From positions 10,562 through 74,561 of the forward strand of contig NZ_CANNDS010000006.1 of the NCBI RefSeq assembly GCF_947503415.1: a DNA stretch of 64,000 nt. The letters are read 5' to 3'. This DNA is from an uncultured Tateyamaria sp. (GTDB lineage: Bacteria; Pseudomonadota; Alphaproteobacteria; Rhodobacterales; Rhodobacteraceae). The position numbers and the translations under genes are program-made. Shown one piece after another: positions 39,087 to 63,872 of this stretch (positions are counted from its first letter, which is position 1; the number at the start of each line of letters is the position of its first letter). The notes under the pieces are model-generated. The model saw nothing but the letters and a program-made list of their open reading frames with translations, was not told the origin of the DNA and did no database searches.

Positions 39087-39106
39087 TGGAAATGAGCAGA
39101 ATTAGC

Positions 39107-39120
39107 GTCCCCGCGGGGAC
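39107..39120. repeat. parS-like palindrome (exact)
   Basis: CGTCCCCGCGGGGACG, in the parA 5' leader. Confidence 0.8.
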
Positions 39121-39132
39121 GAAAAACAACCT

Positions 39133-39146
39133 GTCCCCGCGGGGAC
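39133..39146. repeat. parS-like palindrome (exact)
   Basis: TGTCCCCGCGGGGACA, 26 bp from the previous copy and 18 nt before the parA ATG. Confidence 0.8.
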
Positions 39147-39163
39147 AAACCAACAGGCAGCGC

Positions 39164-40468
39164 ATGTTCACGCACACAGACCTCGCCCAACTTCAGGCGC
39201 AATCCCTCAAAATGCAGGGGTTCATCCGCCAGCAAACCTACTCGCCCGAGAGCGAAAAAACGCTTCGTCGCTTCTCAAGCTGGGAGGTGGCGGAACTCAT
39301 CTTTAAAGCCAACCAATCCACCCTGCGCGGCCGACTCGCCGCCGACCCGTCCCTGCCCCAGGGCATCGTGGAAGAAGACGGCCGCCAACGCTGGTACACG
39401 CTGGATGAGATCAACGAACTGCGTCGCCGGATCAAGGTGAACCGCAAGTCGCTCATGCCCTACCGCCCGGCGAACAAGCGCGCCATCCGCGCCGCCATCG
39501 CCAACTTCAAAGGGGGGGCGGGCAAATCCACAACAGCGCTCCACTTCGCCCACGCCGCCGCTCTCGACGGCTACCGCGTGCTCTGCGTCGACTTCGACCC
39601 GCAGGCCACGCTCAGCCATTCCATGGGCTTGTCGGACGTGGCCGAAGAATACACTGTCTGGGGCATCATGGCGCGCGATCTGGGGCACGAGACTGACCGC
39701 ATGAACTCCGCCCTGCGCGGTGCGGAATCCGGCACCGCCCTGCCCCACCGCAAACTGCCCGCAGCAATCACGGACATGGGCCTCAACGACCTGCGCGCGT
39801 CCGACTTCATCAAGCCCACGAACTGGCCCACAATCGACATCGTGCCCAGTTGCGCCAACGCCGCCTTCGTCGAGTTTGCCTCCGCCCAATATCGGCACAT
39901 CAACCCCGAATGGTCGTTCTTTGCCGCCGTCTCGCGCTTCCTCGACCAGATCGCGCCCGACACCTACGACCTCATCCTTTTCGACTGCCCGCCCGCCATC
40001 GGCTACCAGTCCATGAACGCGGTCTTTGCCGCCGACGTGCTCTACATTCCCTCCGGCCCCGGCTATTGGGAATACGATTCAACCACGTCCTTTATCGGCC
40101 AGCTGTCCGAAGCACTCGAAGATCTGTCCCGCTTCAACGGCCTTGTCCCCGCGGGGACAATGACCTTGCCCAAGTCCTTCCTCGACCTCCGCTTCCTGCT
40201 CACGCGGTTCGAGCCGGGCAATGAACTGCACCGCGCGATGCAGGGCGCGTTCCAGAAAGTGTTCGGCGACCGCGTCTGCGAACACCCGATCGAAATGACC
40301 CGCGCGGTCGAGCAATCCGGGCGATTCCTGAGCAGTATCTACGAAATAGATTACCGGGACATGACCCGCGAAACCTGGCGCCGCGCGCGCGCCTCGTTCG
40401 ACCGCGCTTACGAAGAATTCAAAACGAACCTGGGAACAGCCTGGGACCAACTGGAGGATGAGGCATGA
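39164..40468 (+). CDS. parA: partition ATPase ParA (RepA-type, with N-terminal extension)
   Basis: ORF 39092..40468 trimmed to MFTHTDLAQLQ so that the leader palindromes are not translated. It has the deviant Walker A FKGGAGKST. Confidence 0.9.
   Translation: MFTHTDLAQLQAQSLKMQGFIRQQTYSPESEKTLRRFSSWEVAELIFKANQSTLRGRLAADPSLPQGIVEEDGRQRWYTLDEINELRRRIKVNRKSLMPYRPANKRAIRAAIANFKGGAGKSTTALHFAHAAALDGYRVLCVDFDPQATLSHSMGLSDVAEEYTVWGIMARDLGHETDRMNSALRGAESGTALPHRKLPAAITDMGLNDLRASDFIKPTNWPTIDIVPSCANAAFVEFASAQYRHINPEWSFFAAVSRFLDQIAPDTYDLILFDCPPAIGYQSMNAVFAADVLYIPSGPGYWEYDSTTSFIGQLSEALEDLSRFNGLVPAGTMTLPKSFLDLRFLLTRFEPGNELHRAMQGAFQKVFGDRVCEHPIEMTRAVEQSGRFLSSIYEIDYRDMTRETWRRARASFDRAYEEFKTNLGTAWDQLEDEA
40145..40158. 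repeat. parS-like palindrome (exact, 18-bp TTGTCCCCGCGGGGACAA) inside parA
   Basis: Read as GLVPAGTM in ParA. Confidence 0.8.
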
Positions 40469-41520
40469 GCAAACGCCGCGTATTCGACATCGACTTCGAC
40501 CTGGACGCAGGCAGCGCGCCCGACGCAGATCAGACCCCTGCCCCGGAAACCCGCCGTGGGCCCATGGCCGCAGCCATTTCCGAGAACGCCGATGCGCTCA
40601 CTGAACGTCACTCGGCAGAGGCTGAAATCCGCGCTGAAAATGACCGTCTCGCCCACGAATATGTGTCTCTAAAAAGGGATGGAGCCATCGTTGCCCGCGT
40701 TCCCCTCGGGGACGTGGCGATGCAGAAATTGACCCGCGACCGCAGCACAAACCGCGATCCGGACCTTGAAGAGCTCAAGACCTCGATCCGCGACCTTGGC
40801 CTGTCCAACCCGATCCAGGTCGAAGACACCGGCGACGGCTACGAATTGATCCAAGGTTTCCGCCGCCTCAGCGCGTACAAGTCCTTGTTCGAGGAGACCG
40901 GCGACGAAAAATACGCCACCATCCCCGCGGTGCTTGTCGCCAAGGGCGAAGCGCTCGAAAAGCTCTACCGCCGCATGGTCGACGAAAACATGGTCCGGCG
41001 GGATATTTCCTTTGCCGAAATGGGCCAGCTCGCCTCCAGCTATGCCCGCCAGATGGACCTCGAATTGAACGACGCGATCGCCGTTCTCTTTGCCTCTGCC
41101 GGACGGCAAAAGCGTCACTACATAGGCAGTTTTAGTCTCTTGATGGACAAATTGGGCCACCGCCTTCAATACCCCGAAGCGATCCCGCGCGCCCTCGGTC
41201 TCAAGCTGATCAAAGCGCTCGAAGAGCAGCCCCGCGCCGCGCAACACCTGACCGCCCTTCTGGACCACCAGAAACCCACGGATGCGGTCGCGGAACTCGC
41301 GGTCCTGAACAAGGTTGTCGCACCCAAGCCGGTGGGCGAACAGACCGCGCCGTCCACGTCCTCAAAGACCACCATCAAGTTGAACCGCAAGGCGGGTGCC
41401 GCGAAGGTCATCGGCTCAAAGGGCAAGATCGAATTGCAGATGAACCGCGACTTCGGGTCCATCGATCCGCGCAAGCTCGAAGCAGCGGTGCGCGCCCTTC
41501 TCGACCAGCTTGATCTGTGA
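40465..41520 (+). CDS. parB: partition protein ParB (RepB-type centromere-binding protein)
   Basis: 351 aa with the ParB box IQVEDTGDGYELIQGFRRLSAYK. It has an ATGA overlap with parA. Confidence 0.88.
   Translation: MSKRRVFDIDFDLDAGSAPDADQTPAPETRRGPMAAAISENADALTERHSAEAEIRAENDRLAHEYVSLKRDGAIVARVPLGDVAMQKLTRDRSTNRDPDLEELKTSIRDLGLSNPIQVEDTGDGYELIQGFRRLSAYKSLFEETGDEKYATIPAVLVAKGEALEKLYRRMVDENMVRRDISFAEMGQLASSYARQMDLELNDAIAVLFASAGRQKRHYIGSFSLLMDKLGHRLQYPEAIPRALGLKLIKALEEQPRAAQHLTALLDHQKPTDAVAELAVLNKVVAPKPVGEQTAPSTSSKTTIKLNRKAGAAKVIGSKGKIELQMNRDFGSIDPRKLEAAVRALLDQLDL
40699..40713. repeat. degenerate palindrome GTTCCCCTCGGGGAC inside parB
   Basis: Imperfect relative of the 14-mer, read as RVPLGDV. 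Confidence 0.45.
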
Positions 41521-41610: not shown

Positions 41611-42483
41611 CTAGCTCGAAGATTTTCGAATAATCTGACGGATCAGCGCGACGGTCTCAGCGGGCCGTTCTTCATGCGCCAAATGCCCCAGACCTGCGAG
41701 ACGATGCACCGTCGCATTCGGCATTCGCGCGGCCGCCTTTTCCGAGACGTCGGGCGGGACAGTCGTGTCCCTTTCCCCGACCAGAAAGTGAACCTCTGAC
41801 GGATGCGTCGGCAAGCGGGCCAAGAGCGGATCAAGCTTCCATTGCGCCATCATCAACAGCGTCCCGTCCACGTGGTTGCGATCCCCTACAAGCCGTCGGT
41901 ACAGGGCCAGGCCCGGCGCATCCAGATCGGAGCCTGTCGAGCCGATCAATGCCTTGATCCGCTCAGGATTCGAAGACGCGCCCGAGAATAGCGACGCCGT
42001 GAATGGCACGGCTGCCAAAGCTTTCGCCATCACCGGGAACAGCAATCCCGCAAGCCCCTTGAACTGTGCCAAAGCAGCGTTGATTCCAATGACCAGCGGC
42101 GCTTGTCCCCGCGGGGACAGATCGCTTTCCGCCAGTCTCAGGGCGACGGCAGCCCCTGCAGAATGGCCGATGATTACAGCCGGTGCCCATCCTTCTTGGG
42201 CGCACAGGTGTGCGATGTCCTCTGCCATGGCGTCCAGTCCGCAGCGGTGACGTGCGCCAAGTTGCGTGAACCCTTGCCCCGGCAGGTCCAGCGCAACCAC
42301 GTGATGATCCTCTGCGAGCGTCGGCATGAGGTCGCGGTACGAGTGTGTCGACCCCCCGGCCCCGTGCAGCATCAGAATGGTCTGTCCTGCGCCTTTTTCC
42401 TGAATATGCCAGCGGTGCACGGGCCCTTGTCCCCGCCGGGACAAATCGGAATTGGGCCACGTTTCGATCTGGGACCAGTCCAT
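41611..42483 (-). CDS. bchO: alpha/beta hydrolase, Mg-chelatase accessory protein BchO
   Basis: 290 aa with HGAGGSTHS and the nucleophile elbow GHSAG. Synteny is bchI-D-O. Confidence 0.85.
   Translation of the reverse strand: MDWSQIETWPNSDLSRRGQGPVHRWHIQEKGAGQTILMLHGAGGSTHSYRDLMPTLAEDHHVVALDLPGQGFTQLGARHRCGLDAMAEDIAHLCAQEGWAPAVIIGHSAGAAVALRLAESDLSPRGQAPLVIGINAALAQFKGLAGLLFPVMAKALAAVPFTASLFSGASSNPERIKALIGSTGSDLDAPGLALYRRLVGDRNHVDGTLLMMAQWKLDPLLARLPTHPSEVHFLVGERDTTVPPDVSEKAAARMPNATVHRLAGLGHLAHEERPAETVALIRQIIRKSSS
42105..42118. repeat. parS-like palindrome (exact) inside bchO
   Basis: Read as DLSPRGQA in BchO. Confidence 0.8.
42429..42442. repeat. one-mismatch palindrome GTCCCCGCCGGGAC inside bchO
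   Basis: Read as DLSRRGQG near the BchO N-terminus. Confidence 0.5.
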
Positions 42484-42486
42484 CCG

Positions 42487-44130
42487 TCAGCTGTCCAACG
42501 CGGCAGTCACGGCGCCGCTGAGCCTTTGGGCATCCGCACGCGGGAGCGCGACGTAAGGCGCATCCAGAGTGCGGCTCAGGTCTTGCAATGTGGTCTGCGG
42601 GCGGTTCGACATGTCGATCACCAGTGCCGCCGTGCCTGTGGCGCGCAGGGCGCTTGCCATTGCCACGGAGTCTTCTGCGGCCTGGCCCCGATTTGCGCTG
42701 CCGTCGAGGGCCACGTTGGCGCGCCCATCCGTGACCAGAATGACCGTTGGGGTCAGGCCTTTGCCCTTTGTCTGTTGCGCGAGCAGGAGGGCGTGTTGCA
42801 GGCCCGAGGCGAGGGGCGTGCCGCCGCCGCCGGGGAGAGCTGACAGGCGGCGTTTGGTTTGCACGAGTGAGCGGGTCGGAGGCAGGAGGGTTTCTGCCTC
42901 GGCGCCGCGGAAAGAGATCAGGGCCACGTGGTCGCGGCTGGCATAGGCGTCGGCGAGCAGGAGTTCGATGGCGCCCTTGGCTTCGCCGAGGCGGGAAACG
43001 GCGGCGGAGCCTGATGCGTCGACAGTGAAAATCAACAGGCGATCGGATTGTTCGGCGTAGCGTTTCAGGCGGATGTCGGATGGACGGATGAGAAGGCCGC
43101 TGCGGTTCGGTTGTTGTTCGCGGCGCAAGGGTTGCCAGGGGGCTGCGGCGCGCAAGGTGGCGATCAGGTCGATCCGGGAGGTGCCGTCGAGCCGGCCGGG
43201 ACGCGAGGGCAGGGGGCGGCCGCGGCGGTTGCTGGTGCGCTTTTGACCCGCGCCTGTCCCGCCGGATTTTCGGGTTGTCCCCGCGGGGACAAGTCCGTTC
43301 AGCAGGTCGGGGGGGAGCAGGGATTTGACGGCTTCGACAAGCATATCGGCGTCGGGGAATGCGTCGTTTTCGTCGTTGTCCCCGCGGGGACAGTCGTCGG
43401 ACTGGGGTGGGGGAGGGGGGGTGTCTGCCTCTTCCAAATCCTCGGGAATGACAGTGGCGCGGTGGGGGTAGACGAGCGTCGCAGCGACTTCGAGGTCGGC
43501 GTCGGTGAGGTGGTTGCGACCCATGAGGTTTGCATGGGCGCGTGCGGTGCGGAGGGCGAGGGTCGGGGCGCGGAGGGATGTGATGCCGAAACGGGTTGCA
43601 AGCATGGTAAGTTGCAGGATGGCGTCAGCTGTTTTTACCTCTGACCCCGCGGGGACAGATTGGTTTGTCCCCGCGGGGACACACGGTTTTCGGCCCTCGG
43701 GTTCGATGTGGAAAGCGCAGCGATCAGCGAGGGGGTCGGGGGTGCGTTCGTCTGCCTCGATCCCTTCATCAAAGAGCAAAAAGCCCTGTGTTAGAGAATG
43801 ATCTGCCAGTTGAGAGAGCTTGGCGGCGAGGGCCGGGGGGCAGCGTTCGGCCATGGGAATGAGGGTGATAGTGGGGCTGTAGAAAAATGATTTATTTTCA
43901 ATGACTTGTGCGGATGCCAGGGTTGCGCTGAGGTCTATGCCGCCGAAGAGTTGTTCGTCGGATATGATGATAGGCAGTTTGCGGATGGGCAGGGCAGGGG
44001 TGAAGCCCGCCAGAAGCGCGTCACGGTCCGGACTTGCGCGCATGCGGATGACAGCACCGCCGAGACCCTGCGGGTCAAGCGCCAGCAATTTCAGGGCGAG
44101 GGTCGCGTTGTACCAGTTTTCTGCGGTCAT
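42487..44130 (-). CDS. bchD: magnesium chelatase subunit D
   Basis: 547 aa with an AAA-like N-terminus, a Pro/acidic linker (PPPPPQSDD...) and a C-terminal vWA domain (LLIFTVDASGS). Confidence 0.93.
   Translation of the reverse strand: MTAENWYNATLALKLLALDPQGLGGAVIRMRASPDRDALLAGFTPALPIRKLPIIISDEQLFGGIDLSATLASAQVIENKSFFYSPTITLIPMAERCPPALAAKLSQLADHSLTQGFLLFDEGIEADERTPDPLADRCAFHIEPEGRKPCVPAGTNQSVPAGSEVKTADAILQLTMLATRFGITSLRAPTLALRTARAHANLMGRNHLTDADLEVAATLVYPHRATVIPEDLEEADTPPPPPQSDDCPRGDNDENDAFPDADMLVEAVKSLLPPDLLNGLVPAGTTRKSGGTGAGQKRTSNRRGRPLPSRPGRLDGTSRIDLIATLRAAAPWQPLRREQQPNRSGLLIRPSDIRLKRYAEQSDRLLIFTVDASGSAAVSRLGEAKGAIELLLADAYASRDHVALISFRGAEAETLLPPTRSLVQTKRRLSALPGGGGTPLASGLQHALLLAQQTKGKGLTPTVILVTDGRANVALDGSANRGQAAEDSVAMASALRATGTAALVIDMSNRPQTTLQDLSRTLDAPYVALPRADAQRLSGAVTAALDS
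43277..43290. repeat. parS-like palindrome (exact, 18 bp) inside bchD
   Basis: Read as GLVPAGTT. Confidence 0.8.
43378..43391. repeat. parS-like palindrome (exact) inside the bchD linker
   Basis: Read as DDCPRGDND. Confidence 0.8.
43643..43656. repeat. one-mismatch palindrome GACCCCGCGGGGAC inside bchD
   Basis: Read as SVPAGSE, 24 bp from the next copy. Confidence 0.55.
43667..43680. repeat. parS-like palindrome (exact) inside bchD
   Basis: Read as CVPAGTN. Confidence 0.8.
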
Positions 44131-44131
44131 G

Positions 44132-44313
44132 ATTGAGCAGGGCGGGCGGACGACACGTCCGCCTTACGGATTAGCGGGTAAGGGGCGCCTCGCAGGCGCA
44201 TCCTCCGTCGGGTGCAGTGGCGCGGTGGCGGGGTGAACGCCGCCTTACCGCTTGGGGCAATGACCGTTCCATAGGGCAGGCCACGTAAGGCGGACGTGTC
44301 GTCCGCCCCGCCC
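44132..44313. mobile_element. 182-bp MITE-like inverted-repeat element between bchI and bchD
   Basis: Terminal inverted repeats gggcgggcggacgacacgtccgccttacg (44140-44168) and cgtaaggcggacgtgtcgtccgccccgccc (44284-44313), with a nested imperfect IR and the hairpin GCGCC-tcgca-GGCGC. GTCATG is present at both flanks (44126-31 and 44314-19). Confidence 0.6.
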
Positions 44314-44314
44314 G

Positions 44315-45322
44315 TCATGCCAGCACGGCGTCGACCGTGCGGGTGACGCGGGTGGTGCTGCCAGCCTCGTCCAGCGGGTCGCGGCGCAGGCGGTGGCTAA
44401 GGGCGATGGGGGCGATACGTTTGAGGTGGTCGCGGGTGAGTGTCTTTTTCTTGTTGTAGGCGGCGAGGGCGCGGGCGGCGCGGAGGAGGGTGAGCTCGCC
44501 GCGCAGCCCATCGCTGCCAAGGGCGATGCAAAGCTCTGCGCAATCGTGCAGGATGGCGTCTGGCGTGTCGATCTGGGGCAATAGCTTGCGGGCGGCGAGG
44601 ATCTTGCGGCGGATTTTGGCGTCTTCCTTAGAGTAGACCTCCATGAAGGCGTCGAAGTCCGACTCGAAGGCGTCGCGGCGTTTGATCACCTCGATCCGTT
44701 GGGCCACGTCGTTCGGGCTGCGCACTTCGACGGACAGGCCGAACCGGTCGAGGAGTTGCGGGCGCAATTCGCCCTCTTCGGGGTTGCCGGAGCCTACCAG
44801 CACGAAGCGGGCCGGGTGGCGGATGGAAAGCCCTTCGCGTTCGACGACGTTTTCGCCGGATTGGGCGACGTCGAGCAGCAGATCGACGATGTGGTCTTCG
44901 AGCAGGTTGACCTCGTCAATGTAGAGGTAGCCGCGGTTGGCGCGCGCCAGAAGGCCCGGTTCGAATGCTTTTTCGCCGCGTGTCAGGGCGCGTTCGATGT
45001 CGAGTGCGCCGACCACGCGGTCTTCGGTTGCGCCAAGCGGCAGGTCGATGACGGGGGTGGGCATGCGCCGCGTCTTTTTCGTCTCTACATTGGCCCATTC
45101 GGGGCAATTGTCGTGGGAGTCTGCGTTGATTGGGCACCCCTGCACGGCGGTGATGGGTGGCAGGAGGGCGGCCAGTGCGCGCACGGCGGTGGATTTGCCT
45201 GTGCCCCGGTCGCCAAAGACCAGAACGCCGCCGATGCCGGGGTCCACGGCTGTCAGGATCATGGCTTGTTTCATATCCTCCTGACCGACGATGGCGGAGA
45301 AGGGGAAAGGGGTTTTTGTCAT
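44315..45322 (-). CDS. bchI: magnesium chelatase subunit I
   Basis: ORF 44315..45748 trimmed to [21 protein letters not shown]. Walker A is GDRGTGKST. It has an ATGA overlap with the crtA stop. Confidence 0.95.
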
Positions 45323-46026
45323 TGCAGTCGTAGTCCTTCGAGCGGGCTGGTGCCGCCCCATGTGCCGCTGTCGCCCAGGATGGCGAAGCGGGCGTAGAGT
45401 TCCTCGCGGAACCAAGCGCCGTCGCGGACGGCCTTGATCGCGTCGGCGTGGGGGCCGTTTGTGCGGGCGAATTGGGCCATTTCGTTTGCACCCGGCCAAA
45501 TGGAGAAGGTGACCTGCTGCAGCATGGGGACCTCTCCGATCCCGATCTTGAACAGGACGTTGGGGTCGCTGCCGATCATGGCGGAGATGTCGGGGACGCG
45601 GCCCCAGAATTTGGTCAGAATGCCGGGTTTGATTGTGGCGCGGGTGAGGGCGGCCAAAGGGCCGGATTTCGGCTCTGATACAGGGAAAAAGGGTGTTTTC
45701 CCGCTCCATGCCCCACGTGCTGAGGTGGGGGCGAGGAAGATCGTCCAATGTTCGGTCGCGCGGGTGCGGTAGCGCCCGAAAATGGGGGTGGACTCAATGC
45801 TTCTGCGCGCTGTTTCTTCGTCCGGCCATGTGCAAAGGACGGCGTAGACGGCCGTATTCGGGACCGGTGTGAACCCTTCGCCTGTGCCTGAGCCGCAGAG
45901 TTTCCAGAAGCCAAGGTCAGGCACGCGCGCCATGGCCAGACGGGCCGCGCCCATCATGGTCAGCGCCCATGCCCGGTCGCGCCACCGCGCAAAGCGGAAG
46001 AAGGATATCGTCGTGGTTTGGCTCAT
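45319..46026 (-). CDS. crtA: spheroidene monooxygenase
   Basis: Trimmed to [30 protein letters not shown] (CrtA-type N-terminus). Confidence 0.87.
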
Positions 46027-46086
46027 CTTTTCGCACTGGCAGCGTGCCTGCTGGCACCTCATTAGCCTGTGCGACAGAAAAGAAAT

Positions 46087-46104
46087 TGTCAACTAAACTA
46101 GACA
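46087..46104. promoter_or_regulatory. TGT-N12-ACA (PpsR-type) operator in the crtA/crtI divergent region
   Basis: TGTCAACTAAACTAGACA. Confidence 0.65.
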
Positions 46105-63814: not shown

Positions 63815-63872
63815 GGCGGGCGACACGCCCGCCTGACGCGCCGGACCAAGTCAGGCGGAGGTGTCCTCCGCC
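63815..63872 (+). terminator. two tandem perfect hairpins after pufC (puf 3' end)
   Basis: GGCGGGCG-aca-CGCCCGCC (63815-63833) and GGCGGAGG-tgt-CCTCCGCC (63854-63872). There is no strong T tract. Confidence 0.55.

Follow-up and report, generated by a model that had tools for sequence, protein, structure and literature searches.

Repetitive Extragenic Palindromes Within a Candidate Bridging Reading Frame Between bchI and bchD of Tateyamaria

The Mg-chelatase genes bchI and bchD were separated by a spacer of 184 nt in a 64-kb stretch of DNA from an uncultured Tateyamaria sp. (contig NZ_CANNDS010000006.1; the whole stretch analysed, 64,000 nt, is hereafter called the window). The spacer held four repetitive extragenic palindromes (REPs) and was filled exactly by a 63-codon open reading frame (ORF) with ATGA overlaps at both ends, hereafter the relay ORF. 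The joint reading of both results, a REP cluster within a relay ORF that couples bchI to bchD, was assigned a probability of about 0.6, and its parts were graded separately. The spacer is very probably a cluster of four REPs, from a multi-copy family found near genes of the REP-associated tyrosine transposase (RAYT) type, that was assembled stepwise in a pre-existing short spacer; it is not one miniature inverted-repeat transposable element (MITE), as an earlier sequence-only reading of the window had proposed. On balance, the comparison of junctions also favors a relay ORF, missed by that reading, that would keep bchD coupled to bchI by termination-reinitiation.

The bchI-bchD Junction

The features of the junction, in order of coordinate, were:

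42487-44130, minus strand: bchD, Mg-chelatase subunit D (547 aa), start ATG-ACC.
44127-44318, minus strand: relay ORF, 63 codons; start ATG overlapping the bchI stop (gcATGA), stop TGA overlapping the bchD ATG (ATGAcc), all four REPs inside.
44145-44167, minus strand: REP4, canonical, head type, bchD-side arm of the inverted repeat; mRNA GTAAG-GCGGACG-TGT-CGTCCGCC.
44178-44199, minus strand: REP3, degenerate; plus strand GTAAGG-GGCGCC-TCGCA-GGCGC.
44227-44248, minus strand: REP2, degenerate, second subtype; mRNA GTAAG-GCGGCG-TTCA-CCCCGCC.
44285-44307, minus strand: REP1, canonical, tail type, bchI-side arm of the inverted repeat; mRNA GGCGGACG-ACA-CGTCCGCC-TTAC.
44315-45322, minus strand: bchI, Mg-chelatase ATPase subunit I (335 aa); orthologues carry Pfam Mg_chelatase/AAA_lid_2.

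The bchI stop TGA (44315-44317) and the bchD ATG (44128-44130), both on the minus strand, delimited a spacer at 44131-44314, so that the 184-nt gap claimed in the sequence-only reading was borne out by the gene ends. The tight junctions that it had described on either side were also found: the upstream ORF at 45319-46092 (crtA by synteny) overlapped bchI by 4 nt, and the downstream hydrolase gene bchO (41611-42483) lay 3 nt from bchD. No Shine-Dalgarno sequence was present in the 20 nt before bchD in the window, and no sigma-70-like promoter or terminator-like site (G+C-rich hairpin plus T-tract) was detected between 43600 and 44800 on either strand. The stop of the relay ORF was supplied by ATGA because bchD begins with ATG-ACC.

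The Candidate Relay Reading Frame in the Tateyamaria Clade

Spacers of at least 15 nt were found at 15 junctions of the Tateyamaria clade, measured 15, 16, 28, 28, 61, 69, 70, 73, 93, 142, 166, 166, 184, 190, and 262 nt, and differed in REP content. A relay ORF was present in all 15, with a start codon overlapping the bchI stop and a stop on the bchD ATG or at most 8 nt past it. The strict arrangement, NTGA...ATGA, occurred in 12 of the 15; the remaining three began with TGATG or stopped 4-8 nt beyond the ATG. Relay ORF length ranged from 7 to 89 codons. Expressed as codons per nt of spacer, the frames were 63/184, 57/166, 57/166, 49/142, 26/73, 11/28, 11/28, 7/16, 25/70 (AT-rich and REP-free), and 22/61 (starting with gGTGA). 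The relay ORF of T. pelophila (93-nt spacer) had a TGATG start and ended in ATGAGTGA, as did the one in the 15-nt spacer of L126. Three further junctions (L189-L191) were fetched as a test after the rule had been set; their spacers of 262 nt (89 codons, ATGA...ATGA), 190 nt (65 codons, ATGA...ATGA), and 69 nt (27 codons, stop 8 nt beyond the bchD start, ATGTCG; L191) each carried a relay ORF.

Ten of the 13 distinct spacer lengths of at least 15 nt were 1 mod 3 and none was 2 mod 3 (binomial p ~0.002). In the long spacers the relay frame contained no stop codon, and the other two frames contained 1-3 each. Under a per-junction null of dinucleotide shuffles with randomised frame, the probability was 0.09-0.28 in long spacers and rose to as much as 0.70 in the shortest. 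Beyond the stretches encoded by REPs, relay peptides were unrelated between lineages, an example being the 25-codon peptide of the AT-rich spacer in L129-L132; the relay peptide of the 92% relative differed from that of the window at 4 of 63 residues.

No Shine-Dalgarno sequence preceded bchD at any junction of the clade. As a control, 12 other tandem junctions bearing the same REP family were inspected; none (0/12) had a relay ORF, and most had an ordinary Shine-Dalgarno sequence. The second residue of BchD was encoded by AGC/AGT or ACC in most relay lineages (L122-L126, L129-L135), giving an ATGA.. start and with it the relay stop, L191 (ATGTCG) being the exception; in L127, L136, and L158, with a 4-nt spacer and no relay ORF, it was a serine encoded by TCC (ATGTCC). 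A programmed frameshift or an extension of BchI through the bridging frame was dropped as a candidate, as no slippery site was suggested and the frame ended on the bchD start.

REPs and Predicted RNA Structure of the Spacer

The inverted repeat of about 29 bp with one indel that the sequence-only reading had reported was present, and its core was perfect: the arms at 44144-44168 and 44284-44308 were 25 nt long and 100% complementary, widening to about 29/30 nt with one indel (44140-44168 and 44284-44313). The arm 24-mer GGCGGACGACACGTCCGCCTTACG had three matches in the window and none in 100 shuffles (at most 3 mismatches). Each arm was itself a small palindrome, with an 8-bp stem and a 3-nt loop, a feature that had been missed. 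The nested gtaagg/ccttac repeats and the internal GCGCC-tcgca-GGCGC hairpin (44185-44199) noted earlier were both found, and the latter corresponded to REP3. REP2 read GTAAGGCGGCGTTCACCCCGCC in the window and GTAGGGCGGGGTTCACCCCGCC in relatives. In mRNA order, REP1-REP2-REP3-REP4 made up two adjoining inverted doublets, in each of which one unit was intact and the other decayed; the 25-bp inverted repeat arose because the two intact units, REP1 and REP4, stand outermost and in opposite orientation. The stem of REP1 began at the eighth nt after the bchI stop, and its hairpin alone was predicted at about -14 to -15 kcal/mol.

The mRNA strand from 44325 to 44120 was predicted to fold into one long rod (-114.2 kcal/mol; z = -5.93; 0/200 shuffles equally stable). 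The rod claimed for the RNA was thus predicted in the window, but it was not conserved, T. omphalii having separate local hairpins instead. All REP-bearing spacers were predicted to be very stable (z of -5.9 in the window, and -6.3, -7.6, and -4.0). Since the long rod is not conserved, the folding predictions suggest that the RNA would act, if at all, via REP hairpins rather than through one specific structure. An Rfam 15 scan of 43000-45500 at a permissive E-value returned only a chance-level ASdes match outside the element (18 bits, gathering score 40; E 0.97), and a tandem repeat finder returned only a trivial 8-nt unit.

Growth of Orthologous Spacers

REP1 plus REP2 formed an older inverted doublet common to L117-L120 and L190, relatives with BchD identities of 83-92%. 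REP3 was confined to the window and to L117, its 92% relative. REP4 was present in several relatives; T. omphalii (L119) had a doublet of a different REP type in its place, and L121 yet a third type. The REP1 site carried either the AC/GT or the AG/CT subtype, depending on the lineage. REP-free spacers of 15, 16, and 28 nt were found in relatives at about 70-75% identity, and the bchI end, GCA-TGA-C, was identical with or without REPs in the spacer. The genes overlapped by 4 nt (NTGA) in Roseobacter litoralis and Sulfitobacter alexandrii, and likewise in Thalassococcus S3 if an in-frame GTG is its start; in many remoter relatives the distance between bchI and bchD was -4, -1, or 0-7 nt. The ancestral overlapping junction supposed in the sequence-only reading is plausible, because these three outgroups show the 4-nt overlap, and the series of junctions indicates that the split of the ancestral overlap predates the REPs.

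Subtypes with a GTAGGG head (GTAGGGTGCGCATTTACTGCGCACC, GTAGGGTGGGCAATTTGCCCACC, and GTAGGATGCGCATTCAGTGCGCACC) were observed in the bchI-bchD spacer at L119:2430-2490, L121:2490-2515, L189:1280-1310, and L190:1425-1450. At this one site, several REP families thus occur side by side and take each other's place.

The sequence-only reading had explained the spacer as a single 182-bp MITE with terminal inverted repeats of about 29 bp, inserted in an ancestral ATGA overlap with duplication of GTCATG. The perfect 25-bp inverted repeat, the GTCATG hexamers at both flanks (44126-44131 and 44314-44319), and the ATGA/GTGA overlap of the outgroups are real, but the explanation is contradicted by the remaining evidence. 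Only the arm of about 25 nt recurred; the interior was unrepeated among 116 REP-bearing blocks, in which arms occurred singly or in doublets with gaps of 1-117 nt. Orthologous spacers held 0-4 REPs in varied combinations, T. omphalii having the arm on the bchI side but not the one on the bchD side, and REP3 being limited to the lineage of the window. The hexamers were no target-site duplication, because the right copy was the bchI end, GCATGAC, kept in relatives whose 15-28-nt spacers contain no REP, and the left copy was ATG-ACC, the Met-Thr codons of BchD. The inverted repeat also began 8-13 nt inside the supposed duplication, the bchD-side arm starting at 44140-44144. Comparison of junctions in related strains, a check suggested along with the MITE, thus yielded spacers of varied REP content, and not an element with both arms throughout.

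The REP Family and Its RAYT Homologues

Contigs from one genome per species were scanned with the pattern GGCGGNNGACACNNCCGCCTNAC, which gave at least 116 blocks. The matches listed came overwhelmingly from Tateyamaria (T. omphalii, T. pelophila, T. armeniaca, SN3-11, syn59, and many uncultured isolates), with some from Shimia, Sulfitobacter, and unclassified metagenome-assembled genomes (MAGs). At least 4-16 copies per genome were present in 15 Tateyamaria-like genomes or MAGs, and four family copies within the window. The consensus on one strand was GTAAG-GCGGA[C/G]G-TGT-C[G/C]TCCGCC, that is, a GTAAG head, an 8-bp stem, and a loop of 3 nt (TGT/ACA); sister subtypes in bchI-bchD spacers began with GTAGGG. 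The four stem positions left open in the search pattern served as free positions, and both free stem pairs were Watson-Crick in 125 of 143 copies among the matches listed (AG/CT 55, AC/GT 45, GC/GC 21, GG/CC 4).

Allowing up to 4 mismatches, 192 copies were recovered among the matches listed, 88 of them without a partner within 400 nt. Adjacent pairs, counted over the same matches without a random-placement model, were inverted with tails inward in 32 cases, against 7, 4, and 3 for the other arrangements, with gaps mostly of 1-35 nt. By a crude gene call based on G+C at third codon positions, these matches lay in convergent (29), tandem (38), or divergent (6) intergenic positions, "inside" genes (9), or at block edges (21). 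Copies began 1-14 nt after stop codons. A blastn comparison of 44100-44350 with the 116 REP-bearing blocks matched only the arms, of about 25-30 nt, and never the 115-nt interior. The sequence-only reading was therefore right that the inverted repeat stems from repeated, and probably mobile, DNA, with copies elsewhere in the window and in related genomes; of the further copies that it had recommended searching for, the arm was recovered and the interior was not. No description of this REP family was found in the literature retrieved.

A MAG labelled Verrucomicrobiaceae (L009, L014, L040, L075, L088, L099, L102) contained at least 14 copies, often as tail-outward pairs about 104-110 nt apart. 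These contigs represent either mis-binned roseobacter DNA or a wider host range of the REP family.

A second inverted doublet, which had gone unreported, was located at the end of the reaction-center cytochrome gene:

63815-63872, plus strand: REP inverted doublet, GGCGGGCG-ACA-CGCCCGCC-TGAC, 12 nt, GTCA-GGCGGAGG-TGT-CCTCCGCC.

It began 5 nt past the pufC stop, had no T-tract, and carried compensatory changes in its stems (GGCGGGCG/CGCCCGCC and GGCGGAGG/CCTCCGCC). The doublet was kept at the same site in a Tateyamaria contig of about 90% identity (L044:5796-5853), and it may mark or stabilize the 3' end of the puf transcript.

RAYT homologues were detected in five REP-bearing blocks by tblastn with E. 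coli RayT (E of 2e-32 to 4e-35; about 40% identical), two of them from Tateyamaria (L033 and L116):

L033:1177-1749: RAYT-family gene.
L116:443-1033: RAYT-family gene.
L001:3087-3617: RAYT-family gene.
L097:6885-7442: RAYT-family gene.
L109:3234-3806, reverse strand: RAYT-family gene.

All five blocks came from relatives and had been chosen for their REP content, not for proximity of REPs to a RAYT gene. The homologues scored 148 bits on NCBIfam NF047646, "REP-associated tyrosine transposase" (cutoff 80). REPs lay between -46 and +54 nt relative to the homologue's stop codon at 5/5 loci, and L001 had an additional doublet 62-111 nt upstream. The 3' ends of the RAYT genes ran into REP copies, so that the C-termini (...GRTARAPY) were REP sequence read in frame. 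Pfam returned no hit on the homologues, including none to Y1_Tnp. A regular expression for the canonical HUH and Y..NP motifs found no RAYT in the REP-bearing blocks; the HUH expression missed the genes because their motifs have diverged. A RAYT survey mentioned alphaproteobacteria once, as a class in which the largest RAYT group is rare (PMC5581495).

Discussion

Under the proposed mechanism, a ribosome finishing bchI would re-initiate on the spot at the overlapping ATG, elongate through the REP hairpins, structures that yield to an elongating ribosome and not to a scanning one, terminate on the bchD start codon, and re-initiate there. The relay would preserve the coupling that relatives get from a plain 4-nt overlap, and REP insertions and indels would persist only where the relay frame stays open. 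Termination-reinitiation is almost nil at a spacing of about 20 nt, and subunits of heteromeric complexes are over-represented among overlaps (PMC10666635, PMC6728339). A stable structure directly after a stop codon blocks scanning ribosomes, which are without the energy source of elongating ones (PMC7518266), and unfolding of RNA by an upstream ribosome is the other accepted route of coupling (PMC12548453). A chained relay ORF would fit all three constraints, namely spacing, post-stop structure, and unfolding by an upstream ribosome.

By analogy with known stem-loops, the hairpins would probably lower the efficiency of the relay, and may protect the upstream crtA-bchI segment of the mRNA, giving more BchI than BchD. 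A fuller scenario is put forward tentatively, at somewhat short of even odds: a relay ORF of about 7-11 codons would have arisen from a split overlap, been inflated to 49-89 codons by REPs, and been kept open by selection. The palindromes would be routinely translated, the helicase activity of elongating ribosomes would allow hairpin DNA to be tolerated, and the REP load would tune the BchI:BchD ratio in each lineage.

Several results weigh against the coupling of the genes through a relay ORF or narrow its basis. Single-junction null probabilities were modest (0.1-0.7), and the independent trials number fewer than 15 because REP-bearing spacers share ancestry. The relaxed end criterion was widened after L124 and L126 had been seen, and was fixed before L189-L191 were fetched. 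L160 and L171, with spacers of 20 and 70 nt, had no relay ORF (BchD less than 50% identical, starts uncertain). The hairpin of -14 kcal/mol about 12 nt after the relay ATG might hinder re-initiation as well as help it. A search of sequencing runs matched four metagenome DNA runs only (5-9% of words) and no RNA runs. All REP counts per genome are lower bounds, the census covering the contigs of relatives and the 64-kb window rather than the window's own genome. In the RAYT homologues, the alignment placed V at E. coli H59 (the first His of HUH), M at Y115, and F/H at Y117, with spacing unchanged from the invariant RFWEH to P120. The present mobility of the REP family is uncertain because the homologues are without equivalents of H59 and Y115; the missing catalytic residues would bear on the activity of the enzyme and not on the identity of the repeats.

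Neutral accretion of REPs, as selfish or junk DNA in a tolerant spacer, with the open frame a product of G+C-rich sequence and bchD translated independently, is an unlikely account. Open frames are indeed common at 66-72% G+C (in the long spacers, the probability of an open frame under shuffling was 0.26-0.44), the REP-bearing spacers have a shared ancestry, and translation of the relay frame is inferred; yet length class and openness occurred together in 15/15 junctions, including the AT-rich and REP-free ones and the three test junctions, bchD had no Shine-Dalgarno sequence, and other REP-bearing junctions were without such a frame. An effect at the RNA level only, in line with the stability or processing role that the sequence-only reading had proposed and that is reasonable by analogy, would have the REP hairpins act as a barrier to 3' exonucleases or as a processing site, by analogy stabilizing crtA-bchI relative to bchD-bchO and setting the BchI:BchD ratio. 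REPs (e.g., at malE-malF) and puf intercistronic hairpins stabilize upstream mRNA, all REP-bearing spacers were predicted to be very stable (z of -4.0 to -7.6), and REPs of the family lay 1-14 nt past stops at many 3' ends, pufC among them. Such a role is compatible with the relay; as the whole explanation it is possible but doubtful, since it leaves unexplained the preserved frame and the frame rule in REP-free spacers, and no particular RNA structure is conserved, because REP content differs between close relatives.

Translation of the frame might instead serve mainly to cover a partly C-rich spacer, preventing Rho-dependent polarity on bchD-bchO. This would agree with a frame that is kept while its peptide is not, and with the 262-nt spacer of L189, whose long C-rich, G-poor unstructured stretches resemble Rho loading sites. 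It would require neither an ORF ending exactly on the bchD ATG nor a missing Shine-Dalgarno sequence, both of which were seen, and it is distinctly improbable. A functional small protein is a very unlikely product of the ORF at 44127-44318. The ORF is ATG-initiated, is 63 codons long, and has operon-style overlaps, but its 63-aa product matched no Pfam family, its sequence follows from that of the REPs, orthologous frames of 7-89 codons were alike only in REP-encoded stretches, 4/63 residues differed in the 92% relative, and gene callers left it uncalled in every relative.

The joint reading of a REP cluster within a coupling relay ORF would have consequences beyond this operon. The spacers form a natural series for one gene pair, from a 4-nt overlap through short spacers to REP-laden spacers of up to 262 nt, joined by a frame-preserved ORF of free sequence. 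If the reading is true, the chained relay ORF would show how operons escape both the spacing limit of about 20 nt and insulation by post-stop hairpins, and how hairpin-forming mobile DNA can come to lie between coupled genes while their coupling persists. In annotation, gene callers skip short ORFs in spacers that overlap at both ends, although such ORFs may be translated. A putative intercistronic relay ORF of 7-89 codons packed with mobile palindromes was not found described in the literature retrieved.

Comparison With Known Systems

The repeat represents a new family within a well-known kind of system (REP/REPIN with RAYT, a REPIN being a hairpin-forming REP doublet), and its RAYT is unusual. 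A REP family accompanied by a flanking RAYT-type gene is thereby defined for marine roseobacters (Tateyamaria and relatives), whereas REPIN/RAYT work has centered on Pseudomonas and enterobacteria. Like the enterobacterial REPs and bacterial interspersed mosaic elements with their RayT (YafM), the units are G+C-rich imperfect palindromes of 20-40 nt with a GTAG-like head, dispersed and mostly extragenic, often just 3' of genes, in clusters of alternating orientation, with a RayT-family gene flanked by repeats. The Tateyamaria family differs in sequence, is restricted to Tateyamaria-like roseobacters, and has RAYTs without H59/Y115 equivalents, and the cluster sits inside a reading frame that is apparently kept open. 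As with Pseudomonas REPINs (PMC3116915, PMC3337134), inverted doublets were the commonest pairing (32/46 pairs among the matches listed) and were predicted to form long hairpins, and singletons looked like decayed doublets, the spacer of the window being two doublets with one intact and one decayed REP each. Singletons were commoner here (88/192 among the matches listed), and the 25-bp inverted repeat paired REPs of two different doublets.

Coupling at NTGA or TGATG junctions (PMC6728339, PMC10666635, PMC12548453) shares with the present junctions the 4-nt or 1-nt overlaps, the lack of a downstream Shine-Dalgarno sequence, and gene products that are subunits of one complex. In place of one direct overlap, two overlaps would here be chained through an ORF of 7-89 codons unconstrained in sequence; this arrangement was not found in a coupling review, in which "relay" had 0 occurrences (PMC12548453). 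The ribosome termination structure, an insulating hairpin just after a stop codon (PMC7518266), is resembled by REP1, from the eighth nt, and by the family at large, 1-14 nt after stops. Here, the overlapping start codon would let a ribosome elongate past the hairpin, and the structure derives from a mobile repeat.

Translation of a cistron resembling a relay, rpmI before rplT, is required for loading or unmasking the following cistron (PMC12548453). The Tateyamaria spacers also share very stable intercistronic stem-loops with the Rhodobacter puf hairpins and the malE-malF REPs, which lie in photosynthesis or transport operons with products needed unequally; here, the predicted hairpins lie within a probable translated frame. 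In Rhodobacter sphaeroides, translation of the short upstream frame pufK, before pufB, is needed for the next cistron. Unlike pufK and rpmI, which are conserved genes or leaders at operon starts, the bridging ORF is intercistronic, has a 12-fold range of length, and is filled with repeats.

Neighboring Sequence

A 30-nt direct repeat, D1, was present at 44052-44081 and 44321-44350 (77% identical), in the coding sequence of the BchD N-terminus and the BchI C-terminus. Its copies lay at unequal distances from the junction, and it is probably due to chance.

An uncultured Tateyamaria protein shared 92% identity with the BchD of the window, and a Tateyamaria contig about 90% with the puf region of the window. 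The BchI of the window had no exact match on record. A gene with a ParB_N domain (40465-41520, plus strand) and an upstream ORF of 458 aa (39092-41520 together) stood directly beside the photosynthesis genes, and relatives showed the same neighborhood at their photosynthesis genes (ParB_N plus CbiA/AAA_31). The best match of the window in a plasmid database was the 77.6-kb T. omphalii plasmid pDOK1-4-3, and the BchD of the window was recorded on an 80.5-kb contig. A plasmid-borne photosynthesis gene cluster has been reported for Tateyamaria (PMC6739100, PMC6052148), and the cluster in the window is probably plasmid-borne as well.

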